Below, one piece after another: positions 1,034-12,779 of a DNA stretch of 12,779 nt. A model generated the notes under the pieces. That model was given only the letters and a program-made list of their open reading frames with translations, ran no database searches and had not been told where the DNA came from. Each line of letters begins with the position of its first letter. Within the stretch, counting starts at the first letter, position 1. The position numbers and the translations under genes were made by a program. Source of the stretch: an uncultured Candidatus Saccharibacteria bacterium (GTDB taxonomy: Bacteria; Patescibacteriota; Dojkabacteria; JAHIVN01); NCBI GenBank assembly GCA_964572065.1, contig CAZNER010000036.1, forward strand, positions 7,289 through 20,067, written 5' to 3'.

Positions 1034-2560
1034 ATTTTTATTTACTTTTCTCTGCATCTGTTCTATCTTATCTTTAGTTGTCTCTAGCTCTTTCATTTTT
1101 TCTATTTGAGTTTTCTCTTTCTTGGGTTGTTCCTTTGGTTTAGATTTGCTCTTTGGTTTTCTAGTTGGTTTGGGTTGCTCTTCTTGCATCTCCTTACCAA
1201 TTGATAACCCCTCAACAAATCCTAAATCGTTAGGCTTTGCTTTATTATGTAAGATAGCTTGTGCTGTATCAGGTGAACTCACATTAATACCCTCTATAAG
1301 TTTTCCCATATCAAAACCATCTCTAGCTCCATTACCTGCAAACACTCTCATGTCAGCATATTGTAGAGCCTCTGCTAAAGCTTTACCAACTTCAAGATCT
1401 TTGTTGACTAACAATTCAGCTATTAATGCTCTAATTGCATTATCATCAAATTTATTAAGAGCTTCTTGTAAGTCTTCTTTACCCTCTGCTTCTGCTTGGA
1501 GCTTCTTCAAGATAATCTCAGCTTCTGCTGTACCTGTTTCTCTTATGGGTGCAGCTTTTCCTATAGCTTTTTCTTGCTCTCTGATTTTATCTCCTTCTCC
1601 TTCTAGACGTTTTTGTTCTTTATTAATTGCTTCAACATCCTTTCTCTGTTCAGCATTTATTTTAGCTACAACTTTTTGTTGCTCCGCTAAAACTCTAGCT
1701 TTTTCTTTCTCAATCTCTTGGTTTTTAACTTTATCTACTTTAGTTACCTCAAGTTGTTCTGCTAGAGCAGCTTTTTCTTTCTCTGCTATGAGCTTATCTT
1801 TCTGTTGTTGTCTCTTAGCTACTTCTTCATCTCTTTCTATCTCTCGTTTTTGAGCAGATTCATCAGCTATTGCTTCCTTTAATCGAGCCATTTTCTTTTG
1901 CTCTGCATTTTTCTGTCTAGCTTCAGAGTTAATCTGTTCTTCTATAATTGAAGAAATATCAGATATAACATGAGATTCTTCTGTGTCCTTAAATTCAACC
2001 AATTCAATATCCTTGAGAACTAATCCCCAGTTGGTTATTGCTGACTGTAGAGGTTCTATGATTTCTTTAATGATTCCTTCTCGATCATTAATAATCTCTC
2101 TTACAGTTTTCTTGGTTGTTGAATCCCTAGTTGTTGCCTGAACAACTTTAGATACTTGCTCTGATAGTTCTTTCATGTCACCATTAAATCTTCGTGCAGC
2201 AACTACAGGATCTGTAATAGCTACATAAGCCATGATGTCACATAAGAACCTAGCTCTGTCTATATCAAATGCTTTGAAATCTGTAACATCTATTGGTAAG
2301 ATTTCCAGAGGCATTGGATGTACATGCATACCTATTCCAGGTATAAATCCAGGAATTTTAAAGTATGCGGCTTTTCCACCTGAAGAGTATTCTCCTTCAC
2401 CACTATGTTTTTTGTCTGAGCAAAATACTCTTGTCTTTCTACTTTGTACCACTACGTCAGCATAATTTGCTGGTGCAATCTTATACATACTAAATAAGAT
2501 TAATAAAAAACCAGCTATTATGGCAACAATTAATAGTGGCCATATTAGTATTTCTATCAT
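1016..2560 (-). CDS. flotillin-like SPFH/band-7 domain membrane protein (YqiK/FloT-like), 514 aa
   Basis: An N-terminal TM helix (IWPLLIVAIIAGFLLILFSMY) is followed by an SPFH-like core. After that comes a long region of E/A/K/Q heptad coiled coil (AEQKK..AKRQQQKDKLIAEKEKAALAEQ..) typical of flotillins. Next is a glycine-rich MRVFAGNGARDGFDMGKL segment, and the protein ends in a lysine-rich basic tail. Confidence 0.85.
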   Translation of the reverse strand: MIEILIWPLLIVAIIAGFLLILFSMYKIAPANYADVVVQSRKTRVFCSDKKHSGEGEYSSGGKAAYFKIPGFIPGIGMHVHPMPLEILPIDVTDFKAFDIDRARFLCDIMAYVAITDPVVAARRFNGDMKELSEQVSKVVQATTRDSTTKKTVREIINDREGIIKEIIEPLQSAITNWGLVLKDIELVEFKDTEESHVISDISSIIEEQINSEARQKNAEQKKMARLKEAIADESAQKREIERDEEVAKRQQQKDKLIAEKEKAALAEQLEVTKVDKVKNQEIEKEKARVLAEQQKVVAKINAEQRKDVEAINKEQKRLEGEGDKIREQEKAIGKAAPIRETGTAEAEIILKKLQAEAEGKEDLQEALNKFDDNAIRALIAELLVNKDLEVGKALAEALQYADMRVFAGNGARDGFDMGKLIEGINVSSPDTAQAILHNKAKPNDLGFVEGLSIGKEMQEEQPKPTRKPKSKSKPKEQPKKEKTQIEKMKELETTKDKIEQMQRKVNKNKRKGL

Positions 2561-2585
2561 TTTTTCTTTCTCCTATATTTTTTTT

Positions 2586-2813
2586 TTATTCTTTTTCTCT
2601 TGCACTTAATCTTATAGAACCATCATATATTTTGTTGGTTACCATTTGATTAAGTATTTTGGTTATAAGTCCATCTTCAGTTTTGACATATATATTCTTA
2701 CCATTGTCGATGTCCTTATATGCTTGCTCCATGTCTTCAATCGACTTGAAGACTATTTTATCTCCAGCTGTCTTCTCACCGAGAGACAACTCTTCTACAC
2801 TATATACTTCCAT
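2586..2813 (-). CDS. hypothetical protein (75 aa)
   Basis: Complete ORF immediately 5' of the flotillin-like gene. AGGAGAAA lies upstream of the flotillin start. No motifs. Confidence 0.5.
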   Translation of the reverse strand: MEVYSVEELSLGEKTAGDKIVFKSIEDMEQAYKDIDNGKNIYVKTEDGLITKILNQMVTNKIYDGSIRLSAREKE

Positions 2814-2815
2814 AA

Positions 2816-3022
2816 TTAATTTCTCCTTTTACCTGTTATTACATTTATTACTTCTATTGGTTTTTCCTTCATATATACATTACAATCATTCTTTAAACGT
2901 ATATTTGTTTTATTTCCAGATTTATTATTATATGTATAATTCTCTATAGACACTATATAGTTTATATTAATTATATCACTGTCTTCATTCTCTGTTATTA
3001 AAAAGTTCTTTACTTTCTTCAT
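2816..3022 (-). CDS. hypothetical protein (68 aa)
   Basis: Complete ORF. Its stop lies 2 nt upstream of the next start. Confidence 0.45.
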   Translation of the reverse strand: MKKVKNFLITENEDSDIININYIVSIENYTYNNKSGNKTNIRLKNDCNVYMKEKPIEVINVITGKRRN

Positions 3023-3035
3023 AAGATTTTCACTC

Positions 3036-3431
3036 CTATAAATCCCTTATCATTTTTGATTCTAATACGAAATCGTAATCCTTAGTAATATTTAATTCAA
3101 ATATGAACCTATCATCTTCATAAGATTGAACATTCTTTAATCTTTCTAGAATGATATTACAATCAAAGTCTTTTAAGTTCCCATAGTAAGATGCTCGGTA
3201 TCTAGTTCCATATTGATCAACTACATATTTGAATTTCATACCATCACACATTTGTAATACTTGTTGGACAAATGGATAGTATACATCTATTGAGCCTTTA
3301 TATATATTAAAGTGTATACCACCTAGAGTTTTACCATCATCTGTTTTAAATACACTACCCCATATAGTTACTTGATATTCTTCATTCTCTTGTTTATCAG
3401 TTAATCTTATCTCTCCAACTTTCTTTCTCAT
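3036..3431 (-). CDS. hypothetical protein (131 aa)
   Basis: Complete ORF, tightly packed against its neighbours. Confidence 0.6.
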   Translation of the reverse strand: MRKKVGEIRLTDKQENEEYQVTIWGSVFKTDDGKTLGGIHFNIYKGSIDVYYPFVQQVLQMCDGMKFKYVVDQYGTRYRASYYGNLKDFDCNIILERLKNVQSYEDDRFIFELNITKDYDFVLESKMIRDL

Positions 3432-3432
3432 A

Positions 3433-3765
3433 TTATAATCCTTCTATAAAGAAATCCTCATTATAATTCTCGATTATTCCCTTCATTATTTTAAAATGAT
3501 TTAGATAACAAGATTTATGTATAGCAAATACTTGAGGTAAAGTTATTATTTCTCCTTCATTATTTTTATCAGGCATTACTACTCTTAATATAAATGATAA
3601 ATTAGTTTCATCTGACATAACATCTTCAATTGTCATTAATTCTCCACAGATACCACAATATCTTTCATATCCTTCATCAGTTTTAATTTTATTTGCTCGT
3701 ATTATTTCAGGAAAATTCTGTCGTATACATGTATTTTTATTATATCCCTTTTTATTTATTTTCAT
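3433..3765 (-). CDS. hypothetical protein (110 aa), possible distant member of the small-paralog array
   Basis: Its N-terminus MKINKKGY and first 25 nt or so (ATGAAAATAAATAAAAAGGGATAT) resemble the MKFKKGDY starts of the array genes. The start overlaps the upstream stop as ATGA. An internal CGICGE motif is present. Confidence 0.6.
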   Translation of the reverse strand: MKINKKGYNKNTCIRQNFPEIIRANKIKTDEGYERYCGICGELMTIEDVMSDETNLSFILRVVMPDKNNEGEIITLPQVFAIHKSCYLNHFKIMKGIIENYNEDFFIEGL

Positions 3766-4058
3766 AGCATATCCAACATAAGCTCTTCTAGTTCCTCTTC
3801 AGGAACTTTTTCATCTAACATAAAAGCTTCAGGTCTAAACTCTTCTCCAAATACCATAAAATCTATATCCTTTTCTCCAGGAAATTTTTTACTCAAACCA
3901 ACATTTAAATATTTAACGGTTGCTGTTCTATATACACCATCTTCATATATAGTTGGTCTATTATAATTGTAATTTAATATGATATAATATAAAGCCTCAT
4001 GTTTATGATTTCTATCATATCTTCTTCTAATCTCACCAACTTTAGGCCAGTCTCTCAT
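3762..4058 (-). CDS. hypothetical protein (98 aa), array-related C-terminus
   Basis: Ends in EEELEELMLDML, which is related to the EEAMVELL ends of the array genes. ATGA overlaps are present at both ends. Confidence 0.6.
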   Translation of the reverse strand: MRDWPKVGEIRRRYDRNHKHEALYYIILNYNYNRPTIYEDGVYRTATVKYLNVGLSKKFPGEKDIDFMVFGEEFRPEAFMLDEKVPEEELEELMLDML

Positions 4059-4273
4059 AATAACTCTACCATAGCTTCTTCCTTTGTTATTTTCTCAAGA
4101 TTCCAATGTGTTTGTTTAAGAGCAGAATAATGTGAACCTTCATAACCATTTTCAGAAAATAATATTTCTATTTCATAATCTTCTCCTTTCTGTTCCACTA
4201 CTTTAACAATTTCAACTACATTTTTATACTCTTTACTAGTAGCTTTTATATAATCTCCAACTTGAAACTTCAT
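4055..4273 (-). CDS. small paralog-family protein A (72 aa)
   Basis: Starts MKFQVGDY and ends KEEAMVELL. ATGA overlaps are present at both ends. Confidence 0.65.
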   Translation of the reverse strand: MKFQVGDYIKATSKEYKNVVEIVKVVEQKGEDYEIEILFSENGYEGSHYSALKQTHWNLEKITKEEAMVELL

Positions 4274-4524
4274 AATAATTCCACCATAGCTTCATCTAAT
4301 GATATTATTTCTGATTCCTTTTCCATTGGACTATTAACCTGAAAATTATCTTCAATACATTCTTTATTATGAGTATAATTTAATTTCCTATATAAATAAA
4401 AGGGTTTCTTAGAAAGTTGCTTTAATTGGAAAGGACTTCTATATATGTCTTTTGGGCTAACTACATCAAATATATATCCAACTAGTTCGTGACATCTAAA
4501 GTAATCTCCCTTTTTAAATTTCAT
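4270..4524 (-). CDS. small paralog-family protein B (84 aa)
   Basis: Starts MKFKKGDY and ends DEAMVELL. Its SD (GGTGGA) lies inside the upstream C-terminal codons. Confidence 0.65.
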   Translation of the reverse strand: MKFKKGDYFRCHELVGYIFDVVSPKDIYRSPFQLKQLSKKPFYLYRKLNYTHNKECIEDNFQVNSPMEKESEIISLDEAMVELL

Positions 4525-4664
4525 AACTCCTCAACCATTACTTCATCATCATCCATTTCCTCTAAATACATACCCTTATTCTCATAATATTTAATTCTAT
4601 AATATTTACTGTTAACAATTACTATATCATTTTCTCTACCAATAATAGTCCCATTTCTATACAT
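4521..4664 (-). CDS. truncated paralog-family member C' (47 aa), found by hand
   Basis: Translation is MYRNGTIIGRENDIVIVNSKYYRIKYYENKGMYLEEMDDDEVMVEEL*. The start overlaps the upstream stop as TAATG, and the stop overlaps the downstream start as ATGA. It keeps the C-terminal motif but lacks the N-terminal GDY module. Confidence 0.4.
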   Translation of the reverse strand: MYRNGTIIGRENDIVIVNSKYYRIKYYENKGMYLEEMDDDEVMVEEL

Positions 4665-4885
4665 TATAATAATTCCACCATTAATTCATCCTTAGTTAAT
4701 TTTTCAACTTGTTCTTCCCAACAATGTATTTGGATATATTTATTATATATTGGAGCTAATATTAATTGATCAGGTAATACATCTTTACATATAATTTCAC
4801 ATATAGTTCCCTTTTTAACTGTTACATTATCTCTTATATTAGCTACTGAATATTTTAATCTTCTATATTTATTTATATCCTTCAT
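4664..4885 (-). CDS. small paralog-family protein D (73 aa)
   Basis: Ends KDELMVELL. The N-terminus is divergent (MKDINKYRR). Confidence 0.6.
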   Translation of the reverse strand: MKDINKYRRLKYSVANIRDNVTVKKGTICEIICKDVLPDQLILAPIYNKYIQIHCWEEQVEKLTKDELMVELL

Positions 4886-5124
4886 AGTAATCCTATCATA
4901 ACTTCATCCTTAGTAACTAATTTAACTTTCTCCTTGCTTGGTTCATAGAAACAAAAATCTTGTCTATAAACATTAGATATATTAAGGTGCTTACATATAT
5001 ACATCTTATAACCATATCTTTTATAAATAATATTTTCAACTATAACAAATAACCTTTTACCTATTTCACTTTGAAATCCATCCATATCTATAATCTCTAA
5101 ATAATCTCCAACTTTATACTTCAA
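4882..5124 (-). CDS. small paralog-family protein E (80 aa), apparent TTG start
   Basis: Starts with TTG-AAG-TAT (read as MKYKVGDY) and ends KDEVMIGLL. The TTG overlaps the upstream TGA as TTGA, a degenerate form of the ATGA junction. Confidence 0.55.
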   Translation of the reverse strand: MKYKVGDYLEIIDMDGFQSEIGKRLFVIVENIIYKRYGYKMYICKHLNISNVYRQDFCFYEPSKEKVKLVTKDEVMIGLL

Positions 5125-5348
5125 AGTAACTCCACCATAGCCTCCTCTTTACTTAGTTTCTTTAAACCTCTATTATCATATATCTCTACAGATCCTGATG
5201 CTTCACCAGTTATATATAATACAGTATAAGGATATTCATGGTTATGAACTATCTCCTTTATTATACCTATATTACCTATTTGATTTTTTAGATATACATA
5301 ATCGTAATGTTTAACTATTTTTACGTAATCTCCCTTTTTAAATTTCAT
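5121..5348 (-). CDS. small paralog-family protein F (75 aa)
   Basis: Starts MKFKKGDYVKIVK and ends KEEAMVELL. Confidence 0.65.
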   Translation of the reverse strand: MKFKKGDYVKIVKHYDYVYLKNQIGNIGIIKEIVHNHEYPYTVLYITGEASGSVEIYDNRGLKKLSKEEAMVELL

Positions 5349-5506
5349 AATAAATATACCATCAATTCATCTTCGTTTAATGGACCTATTATATCTAGTT
5401 CTAATACAGCATCAGGACTAACTACTATTTTGTAACCATGTATTTTATCATCGTATTTCTTAACATACATACCTATAGCATCCATATAAGGTAAATCTTG
5501 ATACAT
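5345..5506 (-). CDS. truncated paralog-family member G' (53 aa), found by hand
   Basis: Translation is MYQDLPYMDAIGMYVKKYDDKIHGYKIVVSPDAVLELDIIGPLNEDELMVYLL*. Its stop overlaps the ATG of the 5121..5348 gene as ATGA. It is the first gene of the array, after a 79-bp gap. Confidence 0.4.
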   Translation of the reverse strand: MYQDLPYMDAIGMYVKKYDDKIHGYKIVVSPDAVLELDIIGPLNEDELMVYLL

Positions 5507-5585
5507 AGTTAATTTAAATACCCCTATACCATCAGAATAATACCATTCATCTTAATCTAAATTTGATAATATATTTAGAGATTTA

Positions 5586-6179
5586 TTAATGTATTTTAAA
5601 TTTGATGTCTCCTTTTCCTTCATAACACCACATACAATCATTACATTTTATAGAATTACCCTTACCCTTAGTACATTCTCTAATCTTTGAGACATCATCT
5701 TTATGATTACCTATCTTATTTTTACCATCATCTATTACATAAGCTTTTAATCCCGTTTCAGGTACACCCTTACTATCTGGCCATATTGTCCAATACCTTA
5801 CTGTATTATCAGGTAAATTGCTCCAGTCTAAATCATACATCTGAGTATATATTAAGAACTTCTTTTCAGGAAATTTATTACATATCTTTATCCACTTATT
5901 AAGATACTCTTGACTATAGAAATCTCCTGATTCATGTATCCTTATATATTCAGATTTAATTTTGCTTATCTTCTCTGTAGCTTTTTTAACAAATGATTTC
6001 TTTTTAGTATCTTCATAGTTTCTTCTTCTACTAGGTAATACTTGCTTATAACACATCTCAGCTTTTTTAGCGTAACAATATTTCTCACAGTTATCAGTTC
6101 TACCAGGACAAGTTTGAACTGCTGGTAAACTGAATGTTGGGATATTCATTCTTATATTGCCAGGACTTATATATACCAT
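5586..6179 (-). CDS. Cys-rich hypothetical protein (197 aa), possible metal/Fe-S binding
   Basis: The N-terminus carries a C-x6-C-x3-C-Y-A cluster (TCPGRTDNCEKYCYAKK), and the C-terminus carries a second cluster (C..CNDCMWC). An RIHESGDF segment is also present. There is a weak resemblance to the three-Cys N-terminal motif of phage Gp37/Gp68 (DUF5131)-type proteins. This is not confirmable without a search. Confidence 0.6.
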   Translation of the reverse strand: MVYISPGNIRMNIPTFSLPAVQTCPGRTDNCEKYCYAKKAEMCYKQVLPSRRRNYEDTKKKSFVKKATEKISKIKSEYIRIHESGDFYSQEYLNKWIKICNKFPEKKFLIYTQMYDLDWSNLPDNTVRYWTIWPDSKGVPETGLKAYVIDDGKNKIGNHKDDVSKIRECTKGKGNSIKCNDCMWCYEGKGDIKFKIH

Positions 6180-6185
6180 ATAATA

Positions 6186-6317
6186 TTACTCCTCATATTC
6201 ATTCATTTCCTTTACTAACTTTTTACATTTCTCACTAACTACCTGAGATAATGCAAGGAATTCAATTGGTTTTAATTCTTCTATTATCTCATTCCAATAG
6301 TGTTTATTCCTTTTCAT
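6186..6317 (-). CDS. possible small ORF (43 aa), found by hand
   Basis: Translation is MKRNKHYWNEIIEELKPIEFLALSQVVSEKCKKLVKEMNEYEE*. It fills the gap between the 6304..6633 and 5586..6179 genes, and its start is nested in the last codons of the upstream gene. Confidence 0.2.
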   Translation of the reverse strand: MKRNKHYWNEIIEELKPIEFLALSQVVSEKCKKLVKEMNEYEE

Positions 6318-6633
6318 TATGTATTCCCTCCATCATATCTAATTCTGCTTTACCTTGCATTACTATAAGGAAAACTTTAAGATACAAATCTAATTTAACT
6401 TTATATTTCTTATGAACCTTTTCTATTATCTTAATATAATCTGGTTCTATCCCTCTATGTATTAAACTATCAGCTCTCTTCTTTACTTCTTCTATTAAAA
6501 GTTTATCATAATTCATTACATCATTCTGTAATTTCTCTATAGCTGAAGGCATATCATCGTAGTTAAGTAATTGTTTAACTTTCTTATTAGTATCTCTAAT
6601 TATATTATTTTTATCCTTCATACTAACTACCAT
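6304..6633 (-). CDS. hypothetical protein (109 aa)
   Basis: Complete ORF. A second in-frame ATG at 6621 lies just after the upstream stop. Confidence 0.55.
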   Translation of the reverse strand: MVVSMKDKNNIIRDTNKKVKQLLNYDDMPSAIEKLQNDVMNYDKLLIEEVKKRADSLIHRGIEPDYIKIIEKVHKKYKVKLDLYLKVFLIVMQGKAELDMMEGIHNEKE

Positions 6634-6814
6634 CTCTTATTATACCTGATATCAATTCTAATTCTACATTCTTCTTTTTAGCATAACAAATCCAGCAAAG
6701 AAAGTAATTATATGGATATGGACAACCATTAACTATCTTTTCTCCATCACATTTTATATTAAACCATTCATCTGATATTCTCCCACATTCTTTGCATTTG
6801 GTTAAATTAATCAT
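6623..6814 (-). CDS. small zinc-ribbon-like protein (63 aa)
   Basis: Contains CKEC ... CDGEKIVNGC ... CWIC cysteine pairs. Confidence 0.5.
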   Translation of the reverse strand: MINLTKCKECGRISDEWFNIKCDGEKIVNGCPYPYNYFLCWICYAKKKNVELELISGIIRDGS

Positions 6815-6825
6815 TCCATCACTTT

Positions 6826-7008
6826 TTATATATCCTTATACTCACTACCATGTTCTATTATTTCTATCTTTGTTTCTCTATAAACTTTCTCTAACCATAC
6901 ACAACCACAATCATTACAATAAAAGTCTGTATCTACAGAGTCATCACAATAATTGTCTTCTGTATCATTGTAGTCAGTATCCATACTACCGCATTCAGGA
7001 CATTCCAT
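6826..7008 (-). CDS. small zinc-ribbon-like protein (60 aa)
   Basis: Contains CPEC ... CNDCGC. It is preceded by TGGGTGATTTAAATG, which serves as both SD and start. Confidence 0.5.
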   Translation of the reverse strand: MECPECGSMDTDYNDTEDNYCDDSVDTDFYCNDCGCVWLEKVYRETKIEIIEHGSEYKDI

Positions 7009-7146
7009 TTAAATCACCCACAATTCAATTGCTACCCAAATTAATATAGTTGCTAATACAACACCTGCTAACACAAATGCTCCTTTCATGTTTGTTTCTC
7101 TTAATTCTTCAAGTTCTTCTATGGACATATCCCATTTGGATTTCAT
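7009..7146 (-). CDS. small single-TM membrane peptide (45 aa), found by hand
   Basis: Translation is MKSKWDMSIEELEELRETNMKGAFVLAGVVLATILIWVAIELWVI*. AGGGTGATTTAAAAATG provides the SD and start. Its stop TAA abuts the next ATG as TAAATG. Confidence 0.4.
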   Translation of the reverse strand: MKSKWDMSIEELEELRETNMKGAFVLAGVVLATILIWVAIELWVI

Positions 7147-7153
7147 TTTTAAA

Positions 7154-7534
7154 TCACCCTAATATTTTCTCTATTAAATTTAGTCTTTTAATTGGTTTTA
7201 AATCTCTAGCAAACGCTACTTTACTTGATTCCTTTATTAAACAGTCATATTTCTTCATGGGGATAACCTTTATATTAACTGATCTATCTACAAAACATAT
7301 TTTTCCATTACTTATATTAGATTGCATTTTATATTTACCATTCTCTTGTTTAACTTTATTGAAATATAATACCTCTCTCTTATGTTTATTTGTTAATCCA
7401 TCATGAACTTCCTTATGACATTTATCACATAGGGGTATTAATTTATTCTTCAAAGGTTTCAAATGTTTAGGTATTGCATGATGTTTCTGTACCTTATTTT
7501 CACTACCACATCTCCAACATTTAGCTTTAACCAT
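7154..7534 (-). CDS. HNH endonuclease (126 aa)
   Basis: The N-terminal CWRCGS ... HHAIPKH ... N ... LCDKCHKEVH forms a canonical HNH/zinc motif. Confidence 0.8.
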   Translation of the reverse strand: MVKAKCWRCGSENKVQKHHAIPKHLKPLKNKLIPLCDKCHKEVHDGLTNKHKREVLYFNKVKQENGKYKMQSNISNGKICFVDRSVNIKVIPMKKYDCLIKESSKVAFARDLKPIKRLNLIEKILG

Positions 7535-7535
7535 T

Positions 7536-8081
7536 TTAAATCACTTTATATTCTCCATATTTATTTAATCTACAATACTTACCCTTAATAGCTCTATATT
7601 GTTTCAATACTGAATTAGTAGATACAGGTGTAAATTGATTAACATCTACTCCAACGTTAATGATAGGAATGCTTGGATTACTCTTTAGAATCTTAAACTT
7701 CCATTTCTCATGAATATGACCACAGATTACAAAGTCACAGATAGGTAACACTTCTGGTGGATGATGTTGTACAAATACATCCTTACCACCAAAGAACATC
7801 ATAGCTTTATCAATATAGGTTTTAATACCATTATTCATATCATGGTTTCCTCTAATATGAACAATGTCTCCATTTAACATATTCTCAAATCTTTTACCAT
7901 TAAGTTGTCCTTTAAAAGCAAAGTCACCTACATGATATACTAAATCATCTGGAGATACTACACTATTCCATCTCTTAACAAGTTCCCTATTCATATGGTT
8001 ATTGTCTTTGAATGGTCTACTAGTATACTTAATAATATTATCATGATCAAAGTGACAATCAGCTGTAAAAAATATTTTCAT
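7536..8081 (-). CDS. calcineurin-like metallophosphoesterase (181 aa)
   Basis: Carries the metallophosphoesterase signature motifs in order: DCHFDHD, GDFAFKG, GNHD, HHPP and CGHIHE. Confidence 0.85.
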   Translation of the reverse strand: MKIFFTADCHFDHDNIIKYTSRPFKDNNHMNRELVKRWNSVVSPDDLVYHVGDFAFKGQLNGKRFENMLNGDIVHIRGNHDMNNGIKTYIDKAMMFFGGKDVFVQHHPPEVLPICDFVICGHIHEKWKFKILKSNPSIPIINVGVDVNQFTPVSTNSVLKQYRAIKGKYCRLNKYGEYKVI

Positions 8082-8276
8082 TTAATCACCATACTTTTCT
8101 TTATTCTTTATTATATCTATAGCAAAATCTAAACCATCAGCTATACCTTGTGAATAAGATGCTGAACCTATAAAGTTACCATTCCTAATAGATTCTTCTT
8201 CATAATGTTTTTTTAATCTCTTTAATTCTTTAAGACATCCTTTCATACATATTTTCCTTTGTTTATCTTTAACCAA
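8082..8276 (-). CDS. hypothetical protein (64 aa as tracked, likely 54 aa from the ATG at 8246)
   Basis: The tracked start at 8276 is TTG. An in-frame ATG at 8246-8244 overlaps the upstream TGA as ATGA, the junction style used throughout this window, and gives MKGCLKELKRLKKHY... Confidence 0.5.
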   Translation of the reverse strand: MVKDKQRKICMKGCLKELKRLKKHYEEESIRNGNFIGSASYSQGIADGLDFAIDIIKNKEKYGD

Positions 8277-8509
8277 ATAGCTTGAAAATCTTTATTGTCT
8301 TTAGCTTCACCAAATCTAAGTAAGCCTTTATCATATACTTCCTTTATCTCTTGGTATCTTTCTTTACTACTACCTGGATTGGGATTAGCTCCACACTCTG
8401 GACACTTAGTAGTTGGTACTCCATCATGAGCATCCATTGAACCCATAGGAGCTATATGATGCCATGACCAGAATCCGTATCCTAAACAAGCTTTACATTT
8501 CTTTTTCAT
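8243..8509 (-). CDS. zinc-ribbon-like protein (88 aa)
   Basis: Contains CKAC ... CPEC cysteine pairs. Confidence 0.55.
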   Translation of the reverse strand: MKKKCKACLGYGFWSWHHIAPMGSMDAHDGVPTTKCPECGANPNPGSSKERYQEIKEVYDKGLLRFGEAKDNKDFQAIWLKINKGKYV

Positions 8510-8523
8510 TTATATCATATCCA

Positions 8524-8709
8524 TTAATCAAAGAATAATAATTTCCCAGTATTTAATTTATGTATAAAATTCTCAACATCACACTTAAAGTAATTAGTTT
8601 TACCATCCTTACCTACTTCTACTGTTTGTCCTGTCATAAACTCACAAAATAATTCCCAGTTTTCTTCTCCTATTTTATCTAGAACTTGTTGTTTATTCAT
8701 TTCTATCAC
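8524..8709 (-). CDS. hypothetical protein (61 aa, or 58 aa from the ATG at 8700)
   Basis: The tracked start is GTG at 8709. The internal ATG gives MNKQQVL... Confidence 0.5.
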   Translation of the reverse strand: MIEMNKQQVLDKIGEENWELFCEFMTGQTVEVGKDGKTNYFKCDVENFIHKLNTGKLLFFD

Positions 8710-8793
8710 TTATTATTCTCTTACTACCAATAAAACTTCTTCTAGATTTTATTAATTGTCTATTTATACCGTAAGTTGATTTAATTCTTTTTT

Positions 8794-9276
8794 TCATTTT
8801 AAATTATCCCCTAAATCATCTTCCATATATAATTCATCTTTATCTTTCCTATCTTTAAATACTTTCTCTATAGATTTATCCCAACATTTCTTACATACTT
8901 GTCCTTCATCATCTGCAAGAACAGCATCACAATTTCTACAGTGTCTTGGTCTATTAATTAAATCCTCTGACCATCTATGAACATCAAACTCGTGTTCTCC
9001 ATTTGGAGATATTATTCTAAATACTGTTCCTCTATTATGTTCTACCCATACTAAACTAGTACAGTTACTTATACAATCAACTTCAAATACATTTAAGAAT
9101 CTCTTAATAAAATCTATATCTATTACATAACACATACCCTGACAAGTTCCAAAATAATCAAAGTTACCCTTCATAACTAATTGACCGTGATATTCAAATC
9201 CTATATCAGGATTCTCAAATCTAGCTAACTCCATCTCTGTATTCTCTTTCTTATATTTACGCTTTGGTGCTTTCAC
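8794..9276 (-). CDS. Cys-containing hypothetical protein (160 aa)
   Basis: A GTG start overlaps the upstream TGA as GTGA, with AGGAGA 11 nt upstream. The C-terminus carries HCRNC ... CKKC. Confidence 0.6.
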   Translation of the reverse strand: MKAPKRKYKKENTEMELARFENPDIGFEYHGQLVMKGNFDYFGTCQGMCYVIDIDFIKRFLNVFEVDCISNCTSLVWVEHNRGTVFRIISPNGEHEFDVHRWSEDLINRPRHCRNCDAVLADDEGQVCKKCWDKSIEKVFKDRKDKDELYMEDDLGDNLK

Positions 9277-9491
9277 TCTAATCTATCTCCTGAATATTTC
9301 TTGAATATATTTACCATAGCAATATATATTTCAAGTAAATCTCCTTCATCAAAGTTACCCCAATTATCATGTTGTCTCCACAAATCAAATAAAGCATCTC
9401 TTATATCTTTTTGTATTTTGTCATCTATTATAGATATCCCTTTTTCAAATTCTTGATTCGTCATTCTATAAATTCTCCTATTGAGTTGCAA
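9273..9491 (-). CDS. hypothetical protein (72 aa as tracked, probable start at 9464 giving 63 aa)
   Basis: The second ATG (MTNQEF) has TAGGAGA 7 nt upstream, and it overlaps the stop of the hand-found 9461..9607 ORF as ATGA. Confidence 0.55.
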   Translation of the reverse strand: MQLNRRIYRMTNQEFEKGISIIDDKIQKDIRDALFDLWRQHDNWGNFDEGDLLEIYIAMVNIFKKYSGDRLE

Positions 9492-9607
9492 GGTTTATGA
9501 TATTTGCTATCACATTTACAAGGTTCTCCTATTAGGTGCATAGGTGTTACAGATATAAACCCCCACATAGCTCCACATTTCTTACACTTAGTCCAATATA
9601 AACCCAT
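9461..9607 (-). CDS. small zinc-ribbon-like protein (48 aa), found by hand
   Basis: Translation is MGLYWTKCKKCGAMWGFISVTPMHLIGEPCKCDSKYHKPCNSIGEFIE*. TAATG overlaps the upstream stop, and ATGA overlaps the downstream start. Confidence 0.4.
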   Translation of the reverse strand: MGLYWTKCKKCGAMWGFISVTPMHLIGEPCKCDSKYHKPCNSIGEFIE

Positions 9608-9849
9608 TATATCACATCTCCAAAGCAATACTCAAAGAAACTAACTTTATGATTTATTTTCATACCTTCATAGAAATCACTATAATGTTTTGGTTGCTCT
9701 TCCATTAACTTTGCTGGATTATCTTTATATTTATTATAAAATTCAACAGCTGATTTGACATCGTTTTTAGTAAAATAAATGTGATTATCAATTGGGTCAT
9801 CTTCATCTACTCTTTCATCTATAATTTTCTCTCTTAAAGGTTCACACAT
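9607..9849 (-). CDS. hypothetical protein (80 aa)
   Basis: Complete ORF that overlaps the 3' end of the methyltransferase gene by 16 nt. Confidence 0.55.
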   Translation of the reverse strand: MCEPLREKIIDERVDEDDPIDNHIYFTKNDVKSAVEFYNKYKDNPAKLMEEQPKHYSDFYEGMKINHKVSFFEYCFGDVI

Positions 9850-11339
9850 AATTTCTCTCCTATAGCTTTTATTACATTCACCGTAACAGCATTACCTAAT
9901 TGTCGATATCTTTGTGTATCAGATATTAATATATCAGGTAGATTTCCTATTACAGTTTTCTTTATACCATAATCTTTCATAATTTTCTTACAATGTTCAC
10001 AACAATAATAATGTCCAATAAGATGCAGGGTTCCACCTTTAGCATTCTTACCAGCTTTCTTACAAGCTGAGACTTCTGCATGTTCTACTTGTCCACATAT
10101 CTCTTTACAGAGTTCGTAGCCTGTACCCGTCTTAAAACCAATCCTCGGGCATTTCTGTTGTGGTGTTAGACATTCATTGTAACCAAACCAATACTTACCA
10201 TTATTCTCTATGATAGCAACAACTGTTTGTTTAACACATCTTCCCTTAAAATTCATAATTGGGGTTCCATACTTAGTCCAATCATCTGGGAATCCTTGAA
10301 GTCTTTCACATTCAACGGGAGTTAATCTTCTTAGTTTATCATATTGATTACAGATATCCCAAGAGTGTCTATCTACGCTACTTCTTCCACCACTCCTTAC
10401 TGTCTTGGATATTATAACTCCATCTCTATCTTGGTTATTTAAAGTAAAGGTTGCTTCATCAGGCTCTTTAACCCATCTACCTTCTTGTCTTGGTTTTCTA
10501 TCGGGTGTCTTTACTGATCTAGCTACACCTTGATTCATACCAACATCAAGACAATAAGCTTCGTCTTCCTTACCTATAGTTCCATAACCACCAGGATAGG
10601 ATTTACCCTCTTCTCTAGCTTTAACCATACAAGGTCTATCTAATCCTCTCTTTTGTGTATTCATAACTATAGGTACATTGTGTCCACCTGTTCCCATATT
10701 TTGGGTTAAGGTTGGACTACCTTCATGTTCTCTTATTTCATTTGCTCTATGGGCTTTGTATGTTTTTCCTTTAGATACTTCTTGAATCTTTCTTGCATCT
10801 TCTCTGAAAGGTAATACTTGCTGTCTACTTCCTCCTCTAAGATATCCGATAATGAAGACACGTTCTCGGTTCTGGGGTACTCCGAAAAATTTGCTGTTAA
10901 GTACCATCCATTCAACTCTATACCCCAATTCATCCAACGTTTGAAGGATGACTTTGAAAGTTTCCCCTTGTTTGTGATTGAGTAACCCCTTGACGTTTTC
11001 AAGGAATACAATCTTAGGTTTTTTAGCTTTAATAATTCTTGCAATTTCAAAAAAGAGAGTTCCTCGGGTATCTTTAAAACCTCTCCGGTGTCCAGCAATT
11101 GAGAATGCTTGACAAGGAAATCCTCCACAGAGCATATCAAAGTCTGGTATTTCTTCTGGTTTGATTTTTGTGATATCTGTTGGTTCATAACATTCACCAT
11201 AATTTTTATTATATACTGATACTGCATACTTATCTATGTCACAGTACCATACAAATTTATATTTATCCGATGCTTCTTGTAGTCCCTTACGGAATCCACC
11301 TATACCACCAAATAAATCTGCTACTCTTATCTCATCCAT
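9834..11339 (-). CDS. DNA (cytosine-5)-methyltransferase with an inserted dCMP/cytidine-deaminase-like zinc domain (501 aa)
   Basis: The C5-MTase motifs are all present: I FGGIGG (residues 10-15), IV GFPCQAFS (catalytic C76), VI ENV (113-115), VIII QNRERVF (156-162), IX RRLTPVECERLQGFPDDW (337-354) and X QLGNAVTVNVIKAIG (480-494). Between motifs IX and X, at residues 366-465 (nt 9945-10244), sits VVAIIENNGKYWFGYNEC..C..C..CGQVEHAEVSAC..GGTLHLIGHYYCCEHCKKIMKDYGIKKTVIG. This matches the ComEB/dCMP-deaminase pattern GYNG ... HAE ... PCxxC ... GIKKVVY. Confidence 0.9.
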   Translation of the reverse strand: MDEIRVADLFGGIGGFRKGLQEASDKYKFVWYCDIDKYAVSVYNKNYGECYEPTDITKIKPEEIPDFDMLCGGFPCQAFSIAGHRRGFKDTRGTLFFEIARIIKAKKPKIVFLENVKGLLNHKQGETFKVILQTLDELGYRVEWMVLNSKFFGVPQNRERVFIIGYLRGGSRQQVLPFREDARKIQEVSKGKTYKAHRANEIREHEGSPTLTQNMGTGGHNVPIVMNTQKRGLDRPCMVKAREEGKSYPGGYGTIGKEDEAYCLDVGMNQGVARSVKTPDRKPRQEGRWVKEPDEATFTLNNQDRDGVIISKTVRSGGRSSVDRHSWDICNQYDKLRRLTPVECERLQGFPDDWTKYGTPIMNFKGRCVKQTVVAIIENNGKYWFGYNECLTPQQKCPRIGFKTGTGYELCKEICGQVEHAEVSACKKAGKNAKGGTLHLIGHYYCCEHCKKIMKDYGIKKTVIGNLPDILISDTQRYRQLGNAVTVNVIKAIGEKLCVNL

Positions 11340-11346
11340 CTAATCA

Positions 11347-11448
11347 CTAACATCTCATTTTTAACATTATAATATCAGCAACTCTCCATATCATTACTGT
11401 TGATATTACTGCTATCAATAATCTTTGTCCTATTTCAAATTCTATCAT
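11347..11448 (-). CDS. possible small single-TM peptide (33 aa), found by hand
   Basis: Translation is MIEFEIGQRLLIAVISTVMIWRVADIIMLKMRC*. GGGTGATAATATG provides the SD and start. Confidence 0.3.
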   Translation of the reverse strand: MIEFEIGQRLLIAVISTVMIWRVADIIMLKMRC

Positions 11449-11452
11449 ATTA

Positions 11453-11602
11453 TCACCCTAAACATTTGGTTATATTTCCAATAAGCCAACCAGTTGCAAG
11501 TGCCATTAAGAACATAACAACATAAAATCTATGTAACTTTTTATATTCTTGTAATGTCATTGTTGCAAATTCTATTCCACTTTCTCCTTTAACTACTTTC
11601 AT
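11453..11602 (-). CDS. possible small membrane peptide (49 aa), found by hand
   Basis: Translation is MKVVKGESGIEFATMTLQEYKKLHRFYVVMFLMALATGWLIGNITKCLG*. AGGAGT lies 7 nt upstream. The start is 1 nt after the NTase stop. Confidence 0.35.
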   Translation of the reverse strand: MKVVKGESGIEFATMTLQEYKKLHRFYVVMFLMALATGWLIGNITKCLG

Positions 11603-11603
11603 C

Positions 11604-12374
11604 TTATACTCCTAATACTTTATAAACATACTCTTGTAGTTTATGAGTCTTATTAAATTTCTTATTCATTATCTCTATATGTTCATCTAAGAAATCTTCT
11701 ATGTAACTCTCAAATTCATGTATGTGGGATATTATATCCTTTTCTCCACCTTGTTCCTTTATCTCTATAACTTCCCAGAGTTTATCCTTAACATCTTTAG
11801 GTAAGGATACTTTCTCTACGGTTTCTTTAAATCTTATAGGTGGTACTTCAAGATATTGTTCTACGTATTTAGCATTAACTAATCCTCTCATGGCATAAAG
11901 ATACTTCTTATGTGTCATTAGCTTTTCTGATTTGAGGTAATTAAGATAGTTATTCTTACACATACTCTTATAATGATAATATAATGATATTGGATTAAAG
12001 TGTTTATTCATTATCTTTTTTAAATGCTCCTTACTCCACCCATCTTCAGTATATATTATGTCACAGTTAAGCCACTCTATTACTGAAGGATTACTACTGT
12101 TCAGGAGTCTTATGAATTTGTATAAATCAAATCCAACAAAATCATATATTCCATCTGTCTTATCAATAACATCTCTTGGAGGATGAATTTTCAGATAATC
12201 TTTTTTATCTCTTACATACACAAACCTAATGTCATAGTCGGAGTCCTTACTCTCAATCCTCCAAGCTCTGCTACCTGATTCTACAGCAAATAATATTCTT
12301 ATATTATACTTTTGCTCCAAATCACCTAACGTATTTATAATATCATAGTCTATATCTATACTCCTTTCTGACAT
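11604..12374 (-). CDS. Pol-beta-superfamily nucleotidyltransferase (COG3541-like), 256 aa
   Basis: The N-terminal AVESGSRAWRIESKDSDYDIRFVY is the hG[GS]x9-13 D-x-D nucleotidyltransferase signature. It is characteristic of the predicted-NTase family that is often linked to RNA-repair and tRNA-related loci. Confidence 0.75.
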   Translation of the reverse strand: MSERSIDIDYDIINTLGDLEQKYNIRILFAVESGSRAWRIESKDSDYDIRFVYVRDKKDYLKIHPPRDVIDKTDGIYDFVGFDLYKFIRLLNSSNPSVIEWLNCDIIYTEDGWSKEHLKKIMNKHFNPISLYYHYKSMCKNNYLNYLKSEKLMTHKKYLYAMRGLVNAKYVEQYLEVPPIRFKETVEKVSLPKDVKDKLWEVIEIKEQGGEKDIISHIHEFESYIEDFLDEHIEIMNKKFNKTHKLQEYVYKVLGV

Positions 12375-12548
12375 CTATAGCTCCTCTATCATTCTTCTAT
12401 CCTTATAACATTTGTAACATTCAAACCAAACTTTTCTAGGGTTATTTAAACTCCTCCATGTATATCCTAATGTCTTATATTTTTTACATGTACTACATTT
12501 TTCTGGTGGATATACTATTGTTTTCTCTCTATTATTATTCATAATCAT
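12375..12548 (-). CDS. small zinc-ribbon-like protein (57 aa), found by hand
   Basis: Translation is MIMNNNREKTIVYPPEKCSTCKKYKTLGYTWRSLNNPRKVWFECYKCYKDRRMIEEL*. Its stop TAG abuts the NTase ATG as TAGATG. The start lies only 6 nt from the tRNA 3' end, so the true start may be the second ATG at 12542. Confidence 0.4.
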   Translation of the reverse strand: MIMNNNREKTIVYPPEKCSTCKKYKTLGYTWRSLNNPRKVWFECYKCYKDRRMIEEL

Positions 12549-12553
12549 ACTAA

Positions 12554-12627
12554 TGGCGAGGGTTGGATTTGAACCAACGTACCACGGGTTATGAACCCAT
12601 TGCCTGTTTCCTCTAGACTACCTCGCT
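12554..12627 (-). tRNA. tRNA-Met (anticodon CAU), with some initiator-like features
   Basis: The cloverleaf was read from the reverse complement. The acceptor stem is AGCGAGG/CCTCGCC, with A1 and C72 unpaired. The D stem is GTCT/AGGC. The anticodon stem is ATGGG/CCCGT, with three consecutive G-C pairs, and the anticodon loop is TTCATAA. The variable loop is GGTAC. The T arm is GTTGG-TTCAAAT-CCAAC. The discriminator is A, and CCA is not encoded. Confidence 0.8.
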
Positions 12628-12779
12628 ATCTCTTAAATTTTTTTCAAAGGTTTTAATTTCATCATTAATTAATATTGCCATAAATATTTTTTCTTTTTCA
12701 TAATCTATAACATGATAGATATATTTTATATTAATTGTTACCATCTAATAATCCCTTACTATATTACAAATAACTAAGC

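Follow-up and report, generated by a model that had tools for sequence, protein, structure and literature searches.

An initiator-like tRNA(CAU) next to an RlaP-family nucleotidyltransferase in an AT-rich uncultured phage: possible parallel aids to translation under host attack

In this study, we analysed a 12,779-nt stretch of DNA (contig CAZNER010000036.1; the whole stretch is referred to here as the window), in which a tRNA gene with anticodon CAU and initiator-like traits (positions 12554..12627) is followed by a 57-aa cysteine-rich open reading frame (ORF; 12375..12548) and by a gene for a nucleotidyltransferase (NTase) of the RlaP family (11604..12374), all three on the minus strand. The window comes from a roughly 135-kb, 29% GC uncultured tailed phage and represents a stretch of its accessory and probably early gene region; the GC content of the window itself is about 29%, all of its credible genes are on the minus strand and a Shine–Dalgarno-like motif is present in about two-thirds of its ORFs. 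Our total view of this phage covers 22.7 kb, namely the window together with 10 kb upstream of the tRNA taken from contig L158. The block was found to be identical in four other metagenome contigs, and megablast, run with the entire window, matched none of 50,697 phage records.

The three genes are closely packed. The ATG of the 57-aa ORF (at 12548) lies 5 nt beyond the tRNA, and its TAG stop codon (12377-12375) abuts the ATG of RlaP (12374), which leaves a spacer of 0 nt; no terminator-like site was found in 11000-12779. The 57-aa ORF occupies the gap between the tRNA and RlaP almost exactly, and the chance of finding 57 open codons at such a composition is about 0.3%. It is not preceded by a Shine–Dalgarno motif, because the sequence upstream of it is the tRNA itself, and RlaP is preceded by a GAGG Shine–Dalgarno-like motif. 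We infer that the tRNA, the small protein and RlaP are probably transcribed together. The 57-aa protein contains four cysteines (C18xxC21 and C44xxC47, hence a CxxC-x22-CxxC pattern; Cys4 protein below) and presumably binds metal. It is an orphan: a search of 5.8 billion clustered proteins returned self-matches only, and when 1.8 billion representatives were searched exhaustively with HMMER, the self-matches were joined by three TPR-repeat proteins, which were rejected since their alignments lie outside the cysteines and reflect repeat-boosted noise.

The tRNA is real. ARAGORN called one tRNA-Met(cat) in the window (12553..12628, minus strand), Rfam model RF00005 matched 12554..12627 on the same strand with 50.3 bits (E 1.7e-08) and marked the 1:72 position as non-canonical, and the minimum-free-energy fold obtained with ViennaRNA is a cloverleaf in which bases 1 and 72 are unpaired. 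It is the sole tRNA and the sole Rfam match in the 22.7 kb. The numbering used here follows the Rfam register, which is also that of an earlier inspection of the letters alone (the sequence-only reading), while the ARAGORN boundaries are one base longer at each end. The acceptor stem consists of A1xC72, G2:C71, C3:G70, G4:C69, A5:U68, G6:C67 and G7:C66, with A73 as the discriminator; the D stem of G10:C25, U11.G24, C12:G23 and U13:A22; and the anticodon stem of A27:U43, U28.G42, G29:C41, G30:C40 and G31:C39 (GGG/CCC), with UUCAUAA as the loop, in which position 32 is U. The T arm is GUUGG-UUCAAAU-CCAAC, and A73 is followed by TTAGT, with no CCA encoded. The sequence-only reading had described this tRNA(CAU) with its unpaired A1 and C72, the GGG/CCC pairs that close the anticodon stem, an elongator-like 11:24 pair and no encoded CCA, followed on the same strand by a 57-aa CxxC...CxxC protein and a GS/DxD NTase, and all of these features were borne out by the tRNA searches, the Rfam alignment, the fold and the two ORFs. 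The zinc ribbon that it had named for the 57-aa protein is putative: the two CxxC pairs are present, no Pfam or PHROG zinc-ribbon profile matched, and a single-sequence AlphaFold model is helical (pLDDT 70).

It has been reported that three consecutive G:C pairs mark initiator tRNAs in all domains and that the 1:72 mismatch, together with 2:71 and 3:70, provides the main determinants for the formylase (PMC5389676). The tRNA described here has the CAU anticodon in a cloverleaf, the GGG/CCC pairs and an unpaired 1:72 followed by G2:C71 and C3:G70, as well as A73. This discriminator base is the one expected in a bacterial initiator tRNA. In archaeal initiators A1 is paired with U72 and the three G:C pairs are present; our tRNA has A1 and the three pairs, but its C72 leaves 1:72 unpaired. 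An IMG/VR scan based on the anticodon loop and T loop of this tRNA yielded 34 phage contigs with initiator-type tRNAs that share the U32 loop, and among these the 1:72 position is variable (C/A, G/A and A:U). A1xC72 is found in one of the 34 (L084), in an otherwise canonical initiator body, and therefore a natural precedent for the A/C variant exists. An exact search of IMG/VR for the anticodon arm plus T arm gave no match, and the 17-nt anticodon arm was matched 27 times in 185,579 species-representative genomes, never in a tRNA. This lack of a match among cellular tRNAs therefore provides no host clue and no cellular homologue; the tRNA was not copied recently from any known host gene.

Two further observations concern initiator-type tRNAs. 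A 43-codon ORF with an SD-like AAGG (12613-12744, minus strand) enters the tRNA gene of the window and stops 15 nt inside it; it has been annotated as a gene in contig L002 and not in L158. Four metagenome contigs (L159 at ~2057-2091, L162 at ~1071-1105, L163 and L165) contain only the 3' part of an initiator-type tRNA, from about position 28 to the CCA, fused to unrelated sequence. They have the appearance of attachment sites left behind by elements that use initiator tRNA genes for integration.

The gene downstream of the 57-aa ORF encodes a 256-aa Pol-beta-type NTase. Residues 11-238 match the RlaP family (PF10127) at 3.4e-60, with 204 bits against a cut-off of 23, and phrog_14344 'nucleotidyltransferase' is matched at 2.6e-66; the profile searches thus place the protein neither among the CCA-adding nor among the antibiotic NTases. 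Across an alignment of 41 sequences, the catalytic residues G34-S35, D46-x-D48 and D83 are conserved, with D83 invariant. In an AlphaFold model based on this alignment (pLDDT 93), the NTase domain precedes a helical C-terminal domain, and the elements come in the order given in a preprint for the PfRlaP crystal structure (N-terminal NTase domain, C-terminal helical domain, terminal helix), the PDB holding no RlaP for superposition; a PDB search with the sequence gave no match. There are 1245 homologues at E <1e-10, and those listed all belong to PF10127. Identity to any RlaP in deposited phage genomes is at most 36%, and the nearest relatives come from DPANN archaea and from contigs with Alba and RadA-like genes. 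The protein appears to belong to a divergent RlaP clade that is common to DPANN archaea and uncultured viruses.

For the chemistry of RlaP we rely on the literature. Two Pseudomonas RlaPs add one or two nucleoside monophosphates onto RNA 3'-OH ends, with little preference among nucleoside triphosphates (NTPs) and with Mn2+ favoured (bioRxiv 10.64898/2025.12.29.696909). On a nicked-tRNA mimic, the 3' end of the 5' half, that is the broken anticodon loop, is preferred over the acceptor end, and RlaP partly restores aminoacylation of a tRNA that lacks one anticodon-loop nucleotide; T4 NrdC.11 has been assigned to the same family (10.64898/2025.12.29.696909). In a survey of 224 jumbo phages, RlaP was the most prevalent such NTase, its distribution mirrored that of RNA ligases, alongside tRNA provisioning, and it has been predicted to restore nucleotides removed by RloC-type nucleases (PMC7824862).

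The surroundings of RlaP were compared at 92 loci, of which 78 are IMG/VR loci found with the RlaP alignment and 14 come from other contig look-ups. A tRNA is present within ~6-kb flanks at 19 of the 78 IMG/VR loci and at 7 of 80 loci of a C5-methylase control (Fisher p 0.01), a control whose contigs are smaller and which is unmatched for genome size, so that the enrichment is partly a size effect. In the full set, 15 of the 92 loci have a tRNA no more than 3 kb from RlaP. At five loci (L012, L016, L020, L021 and L050, in contigs of 27-170 kb) a tRNA lies on the same strand within 300 nt, at distances of 60-281 nt, and in L006 RlaP is found together with a PTH2 peptidyl-tRNA hydrolase gene between two tRNA blocks. 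In L016, L020 and L021, RtcB is encoded 0.7-2 kb downstream of RlaP. Together with the homologues beside a PF09414 ligase in L156 and beside an RNA ligase in the cultured virus CcrColossus, these RtcB neighbours support the link between this NTase family and RNA repair that the sequence-only reading had drawn.

Several of these loci have features of their own. In L016 (4537-9733), a peptide deformylase gene, five tRNAs and RlaP are followed by a 769-aa RtcB protein whose first ~400 residues are outside the RtcB domain, and in L020 (6846-10045) the order is 19 tRNAs, RlaP, a HATPase_c protein, a TIR-domain protein and then RtcB. L006 (= L001; IMGVR_UViG_3300017963_000032; 2046-10268) is a viral contig of 79 kb that comes from the same type of sample. 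When introns were allowed, ARAGORN found 20 tRNAs in it, five of which have 36-61-nt inserts just after the anticodon, and its tRNA(CAU) has A1:U72 and three G:C pairs; together with the PTH2 gene beside RlaP, these properties suggest an archaeal virus with intron-bearing tRNAs. The virus-like contigs L117 and L118 contain YopX and many small ORFs, and the virus-like L121 contains Alba, Band_7, a RadA-like gene and a class II CCA-adding enzyme in addition to RlaP. Cellular contigs of DPANN archaea with the closest RlaPs are L119 (Woesearchaeota), L123, which has archaeal-type genes, and L154 and L155 from a Nanoarchaeota metagenome-assembled genome. A gene for an NFACT-R_1 domain protein, a member of a ribosome quality-control family, overlaps the start of RlaP by 4 nt in L154 (6605-8142) and L155 (4976-6513), and in L123 an NFACT protein is encoded 5 kb from RlaP; these neighbours could link RlaP to the handling of stalled ribosomes or peptidyl-tRNA in DPANN archaea.

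Within the 22.7 kb, the only other candidate repair gene encodes a 181-aa calcineurin-type metallophosphoesterase (Metallophos_2; 7536..8081, minus strand; PF12850 1.2e-08, phrog_547 4.6e-37) and is located 3.5 kb downstream of RlaP. In L156, L157 and L005, whose RlaP shows 56% identity to that of the window, a cassette is found with the order RlaP, Metallophos, RNA_ligase (PF09414), three small ORFs and Metallophos_2. The phosphoesterase of the window is 49.5% identical to the Metallophos_2 protein of this cassette, which is encoded there ~2.5 kb downstream of RlaP, and weaker homologues are present near RlaP in L012 and L043. By sequence comparison, the window looks like the L156/L157/L005 cassette minus the ligase pair, or with the pair moved to another place, and the metallophosphoesterase is a candidate for the RNA 3'-end healing partner of RlaP.

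The interpretation that we favour, and to which we would give about half of our confidence, is that the locus provides two parallel aids to translation under host attack, namely an initiator-type tRNA and RlaP-based repair. According to this interpretation, the phage tRNA would be matured by the host RNase P and 3' processing, receive its CCA from the host and be aminoacylated with methionine. If the host is bacterial, formylation would follow, because the 1x72 mismatch, G2:C71, C3:G70 and A73 are formylase determinants, and the three G:C pairs would allow its entry into the P site, so that it would supplement or replace the host initiator tRNA. RlaP, for its part, would put back one or two nucleotides where RNA 3' ends have been trimmed, prior to ligation; the 3'-OH end would plausibly be generated by the metallophosphoesterase, and the ligase would be supplied by the host or from elsewhere in the phage genome. 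RlaP is, in this arrangement, not a maturation enzyme dedicated to the adjoining tRNA. The sequence-only reading had proposed a phage cluster of tRNA plus NTase that could counter host defences. As a general role that we infer for such genes, counter-defence agrees with published work (PMC7824862; 10.64898/2025.12.29.696909) and with the presence of RlaP in tRNA arrays; a specific partnership between this tRNA and this NTase found no support.

A number of observations weigh against the idea of two parallel aids. Bacterial initiators have a purine11:pyrimidine24 pair (A11:U24) in the D stem, and the window tRNA has the pyrimidine–purine, elongator-like U11.G24; likewise its mismatch is A1xC72 and not the usual C1xA72. 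None of the closest RlaP relatives (56-72% identity; L117, L118 and L152-L157, all of them uncultured) has an adjacent tRNA, and the 34 initiator-like tRNA loci of IMG/VR phages are all devoid of RlaP. Genes for an RNA ligase, RtcB or a polynucleotide kinase are absent from the 22.7 kb; an RNA ligase neighbour, from which the family takes its name, is thus absent here and present in L156, L016, L020, L021 and CcrColossus. The RlaP biochemistry comes from a single preprint on Pseudomonas enzymes that are distant from the clade of the window protein. Clues to the host point to different domains, with distant homologues of window proteins in bacterial phages on the one hand and the DPANN relatives of RlaP on the other.

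Because the nearest RlaPs lack a tRNA and the 34 initiator loci lack RlaP, the adjacency of the two genes in the window may be incidental. This is the strongest of the alternatives, and we regard it as possible, with perhaps half the weight of the interpretation that we favour: the tRNA and RlaP would both be functional, but as independent cargo of a plastic accessory region, sharing neither regulation nor a pathway. It is consistent with this view that a metagenome scan found eight loci with ordinary initiator-type tRNAs or 3' tRNA fragments and no RlaP at any of them, that the cultured viruses HGTV-1 and CcrColossus carry RlaP beside a TROVE protein and an RNA ligase, respectively, with no tRNA within 5 kb, and that genome size can account for part of the tRNA enrichment near RlaP. 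However, the packing of tRNA, ORF and RlaP on one strand is the tightest possible, and in five large contigs that are unrelated to one another RlaP lies 60-281 nt from tRNAs, while a sixth has it within a tRNA array, which is far above the ~1-5% expected by genome share. We conclude that there is no specific pairing of RlaP with initiator tRNA and that RlaP is part of a 'translation-support island' of many large phages, in which it is often interleaved with tRNAs.

A second alternative, which we consider unlikely, concerns the identity of the tRNA and is compatible with either reading of RlaP. In this case the tRNA would be a tRNA-Ile2 in which C34 is converted to lysidine, or to agmatidine if the host is archaeal, and which reads AUA. 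AUA is the dominant Ile codon of the window: in 30 ORFs it accounts for 216 of the 324 Ile codons and reaches 56.8 per 1000 codons, which is close to double the frequency of AUG, so that a tRNA-Ile2 would supply the most-used codon. The elongator-type 11:24 pair also fits Ile2, ARAGORN cannot separate tRNA-Ile2 from Met, and the overall identities to the E. coli fMet, Met and Ile2 sequences (0.69, 0.64 and 0.65) do not discriminate between them. However, the 29:41 pair is G:C in the window, unlike the C:G of E. coli tRNA-Ile2, and the host is possibly as AT-rich as the phage, in which case there would be no shortage of tRNA for AUA. A paired 1:72 and an elongator-type anticodon stem would be expected of a tRNA-Ile2, and the unpaired 1:72 and the three G:C pairs found instead are initiator hallmarks (PMC5389676) and are unusual in elongators. 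Since both of these features are rare in elongators, the initiator reading would appear to be considerably the more probable of the two. AGA and UUA are also heavily used across the window ORFs, which bears on the tRNAs that the phage might need.

Less probable still is the proposal that RlaP serves the phage tRNA as a dedicated 3'-end enzyme, with the Cys4 protein as a possible guide, and builds or mends its CCA tail, for example after the action of tail-cleaving or tail-blocking defences. The three genes are contiguous and the CCA is not encoded, published RlaP works on RNA 3'-OH ends and, in total RNA, also on full-length RNAs of tRNA size (10.64898/2025.12.29.696909), and host systems that cut tRNA tails exist (PMC12851939). 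In addition, a PF13240 zinc ribbon is fused to the N-terminus of RlaP in the homologue P0072, and in L117 a Cys-rich ORF, which is unrelated to the 57-aa ORF of the window, is located just upstream of RlaP. However, published RlaP adds only 1-2 nt with little NTP specificity, prefers the anticodon-loop end, and its activity on an acceptor-end fragment falls once the tRNA is assembled. A Pfam search at E up to 0.1 gave no match to CCA-enzyme families (PF01743 and PF12627 for class II; class I), the sole other trace being the sub-threshold W02B3_4_N, and both RlaP and a class II CCA-adding enzyme are encoded in L121. CCA addition as the main role of RlaP was therefore rejected; the sequence-only reading had allowed that the cluster could add or repair tRNA 3' ends. 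CCA-less tRNA genes are ordinary for many hosts, in which the tail is added by the host's own CCA enzyme. The 57-aa ORF is an orphan, and a partnership between the Cys4 protein and RlaP is only hinted at, because small Cys-rich ORFs are frequent all through the window.

We would attach similarly little probability to a model in which the tRNA, the Cys4 protein and RlaP work together as a unit and excision of the tRNA leaves an effectively leaderless mRNA, which couples expression to the tRNA. In such a unit, the first AUG would be 5 nt from the 5' end of the mRNA after tRNA excision, and both tRNA processing and the supply of initiator tRNA would govern the expression of the Cys4 protein and, through translational coupling, that of RlaP. 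The Cys4 protein would then direct RlaP to the phage tRNA with its A1xC72 and U11.G24, which would be kept usable under host attack on tRNA ends. An antibiotic NTase was rejected since it has no sequence-level support and since the best Foldseek matches of the RlaP model, Hailong HalB and the kanamycin NTase ANT(4') (TM ~0.43, 11% identity), are generic NTase neighbours only, which come up because the Pol-beta scaffold is shared and no RlaP structure has been deposited.

Immediately downstream of RlaP, a 49-aa ORF with a hydrophobic C-terminal segment (11453..11602, minus strand) begins 1 nt after the RlaP stop codon. It has a strong AGGAG ribosome-binding site and has been annotated as a gene in four independent contigs, and it is probably co-transcribed with RlaP. 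Further downstream, an SPFH/Band_7 (flotillin-like) protein is encoded at 1016-2560 on the same strand, 9 kb from RlaP. Band_7 genes are also found on the RlaP strand in L121 (5890-6726) and L021 (4026-4823), 1.2-1.3 kb upstream of RlaP, and the three loci that pair Band_7 with RlaP are mutually unrelated.

The window contains additional genes that are of interest in their own right. A 501-aa C5 DNA cytosine methyltransferase (9834-11339, minus strand; PF00145, 3e-87) has a cytidine/dCMP-deaminase zinc-binding domain (PF00383, 1e-05; ~110 aa) inserted between methylase motifs IX and X, and this insert retains the HAE ... CxxC motif. Among the 120 best homologues, the architecture occurs in two, namely the window protein and P0126 (63% identical), and the nearest others are without the insert. 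Such a fusion could convert C via 5mC to T, or could produce a modified base. A 164-codon open frame (10733-11227, minus strand) runs in an alternative frame within the methylase gene, and its C-terminal part (LSDILEEEVDSKYYLSEKMQERF) presumably resembles the segment that usually follows motif VIII of C5 methylases. The frame conserved among the methylase homologues is the main one and not the 164-codon alternative, which may be the relic of an old double frameshift or may be due to chance. Between 4055 and 5348 (minus strand), five small paralogous ORFs of 72-84 aa are arranged in tandem and share the C-terminal end (E/D)E(A/V)M(V/I)(E/G)LL; the one paralogue that was tested gave no family match.

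The RlaP family, its chemistry, its occurrence in phages and the counter-defence rationale have already been published. The modest extensions made here are a divergent RlaP clade, the nesting of RlaP in tRNA arrays, a tRNA with A1xC72 and U11.G24, and an orphan Cys4 gene. The locus adds a compact example from an AT-rich phage to the theme of large phages that carry spare tRNAs and RNA-mending enzymes, and the repeated nesting of RlaP in phage tRNA arrays with RtcB, RNA ligase or peptidyl-tRNA hydrolase strengthens a link between RlaP and tRNA repair that has been mostly predicted. While the tRNA–RlaP module neither opens nor settles long-standing questions, it offers simple test cases, one being a single initiator-type tRNA whose A/C mismatch is rare and the other an RlaP without a ligase.

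When compared with known systems, the tRNA resembles bacterial tRNA(fMet) in its CAU anticodon, the unpaired 1:72, G2:C71, C3:G70, A73, the three G:C pairs and the GGUUCAAAUCC T arm. It differs in its D arm, which is GUCU/AGGC with U11.G24 and not GAGC/GCUC with A11:U24, and in having A1xC72 in place of C1xA72. With the known RlaPs (P. fluorescens and P. aeruginosa RlaP, T4 NrdC.11, phiKZ gp237, CcrColossus gp172 and HGTV-1 gp126), the window protein shares the GS/DxD/D residues and, in its predicted structure, the two-domain layout, the occurrence in large phages, and clade homologues that lie beside RNA ligase, RtcB and phosphoesterases. Unlike these, it has a tRNA and an orphan Cys4 ORF directly upstream and no ligase in 22.7 kb. 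The CCA-adding enzymes of classes I and II belong to the same Pol-beta superfamily and also act on tRNA 3' ends, but RlaP lacks a PF01743 match and has no CCA specificity. The closest parallels are the jumbo-phage gene sets described by Iyer et al. 2021 (PMC7824862) and the T4 Pnkp/Rnl1 pair that acts against PrrC, which follow the same logic of phage tRNAs combined with enzymes that mend cut tRNAs. Unlike the jumbo-phage sets, the window is minimal, with one tRNA, one NTase, one phosphoesterase and no kinase or ligase in the 22.7 kb. On the other hand, the nesting of RlaP in the tRNA arrays of L006, L012, L016, L020, L021 and L050 is a tighter association than the co-occurrence at the level of whole genomes that was described for jumbo phages (PMC7824862).

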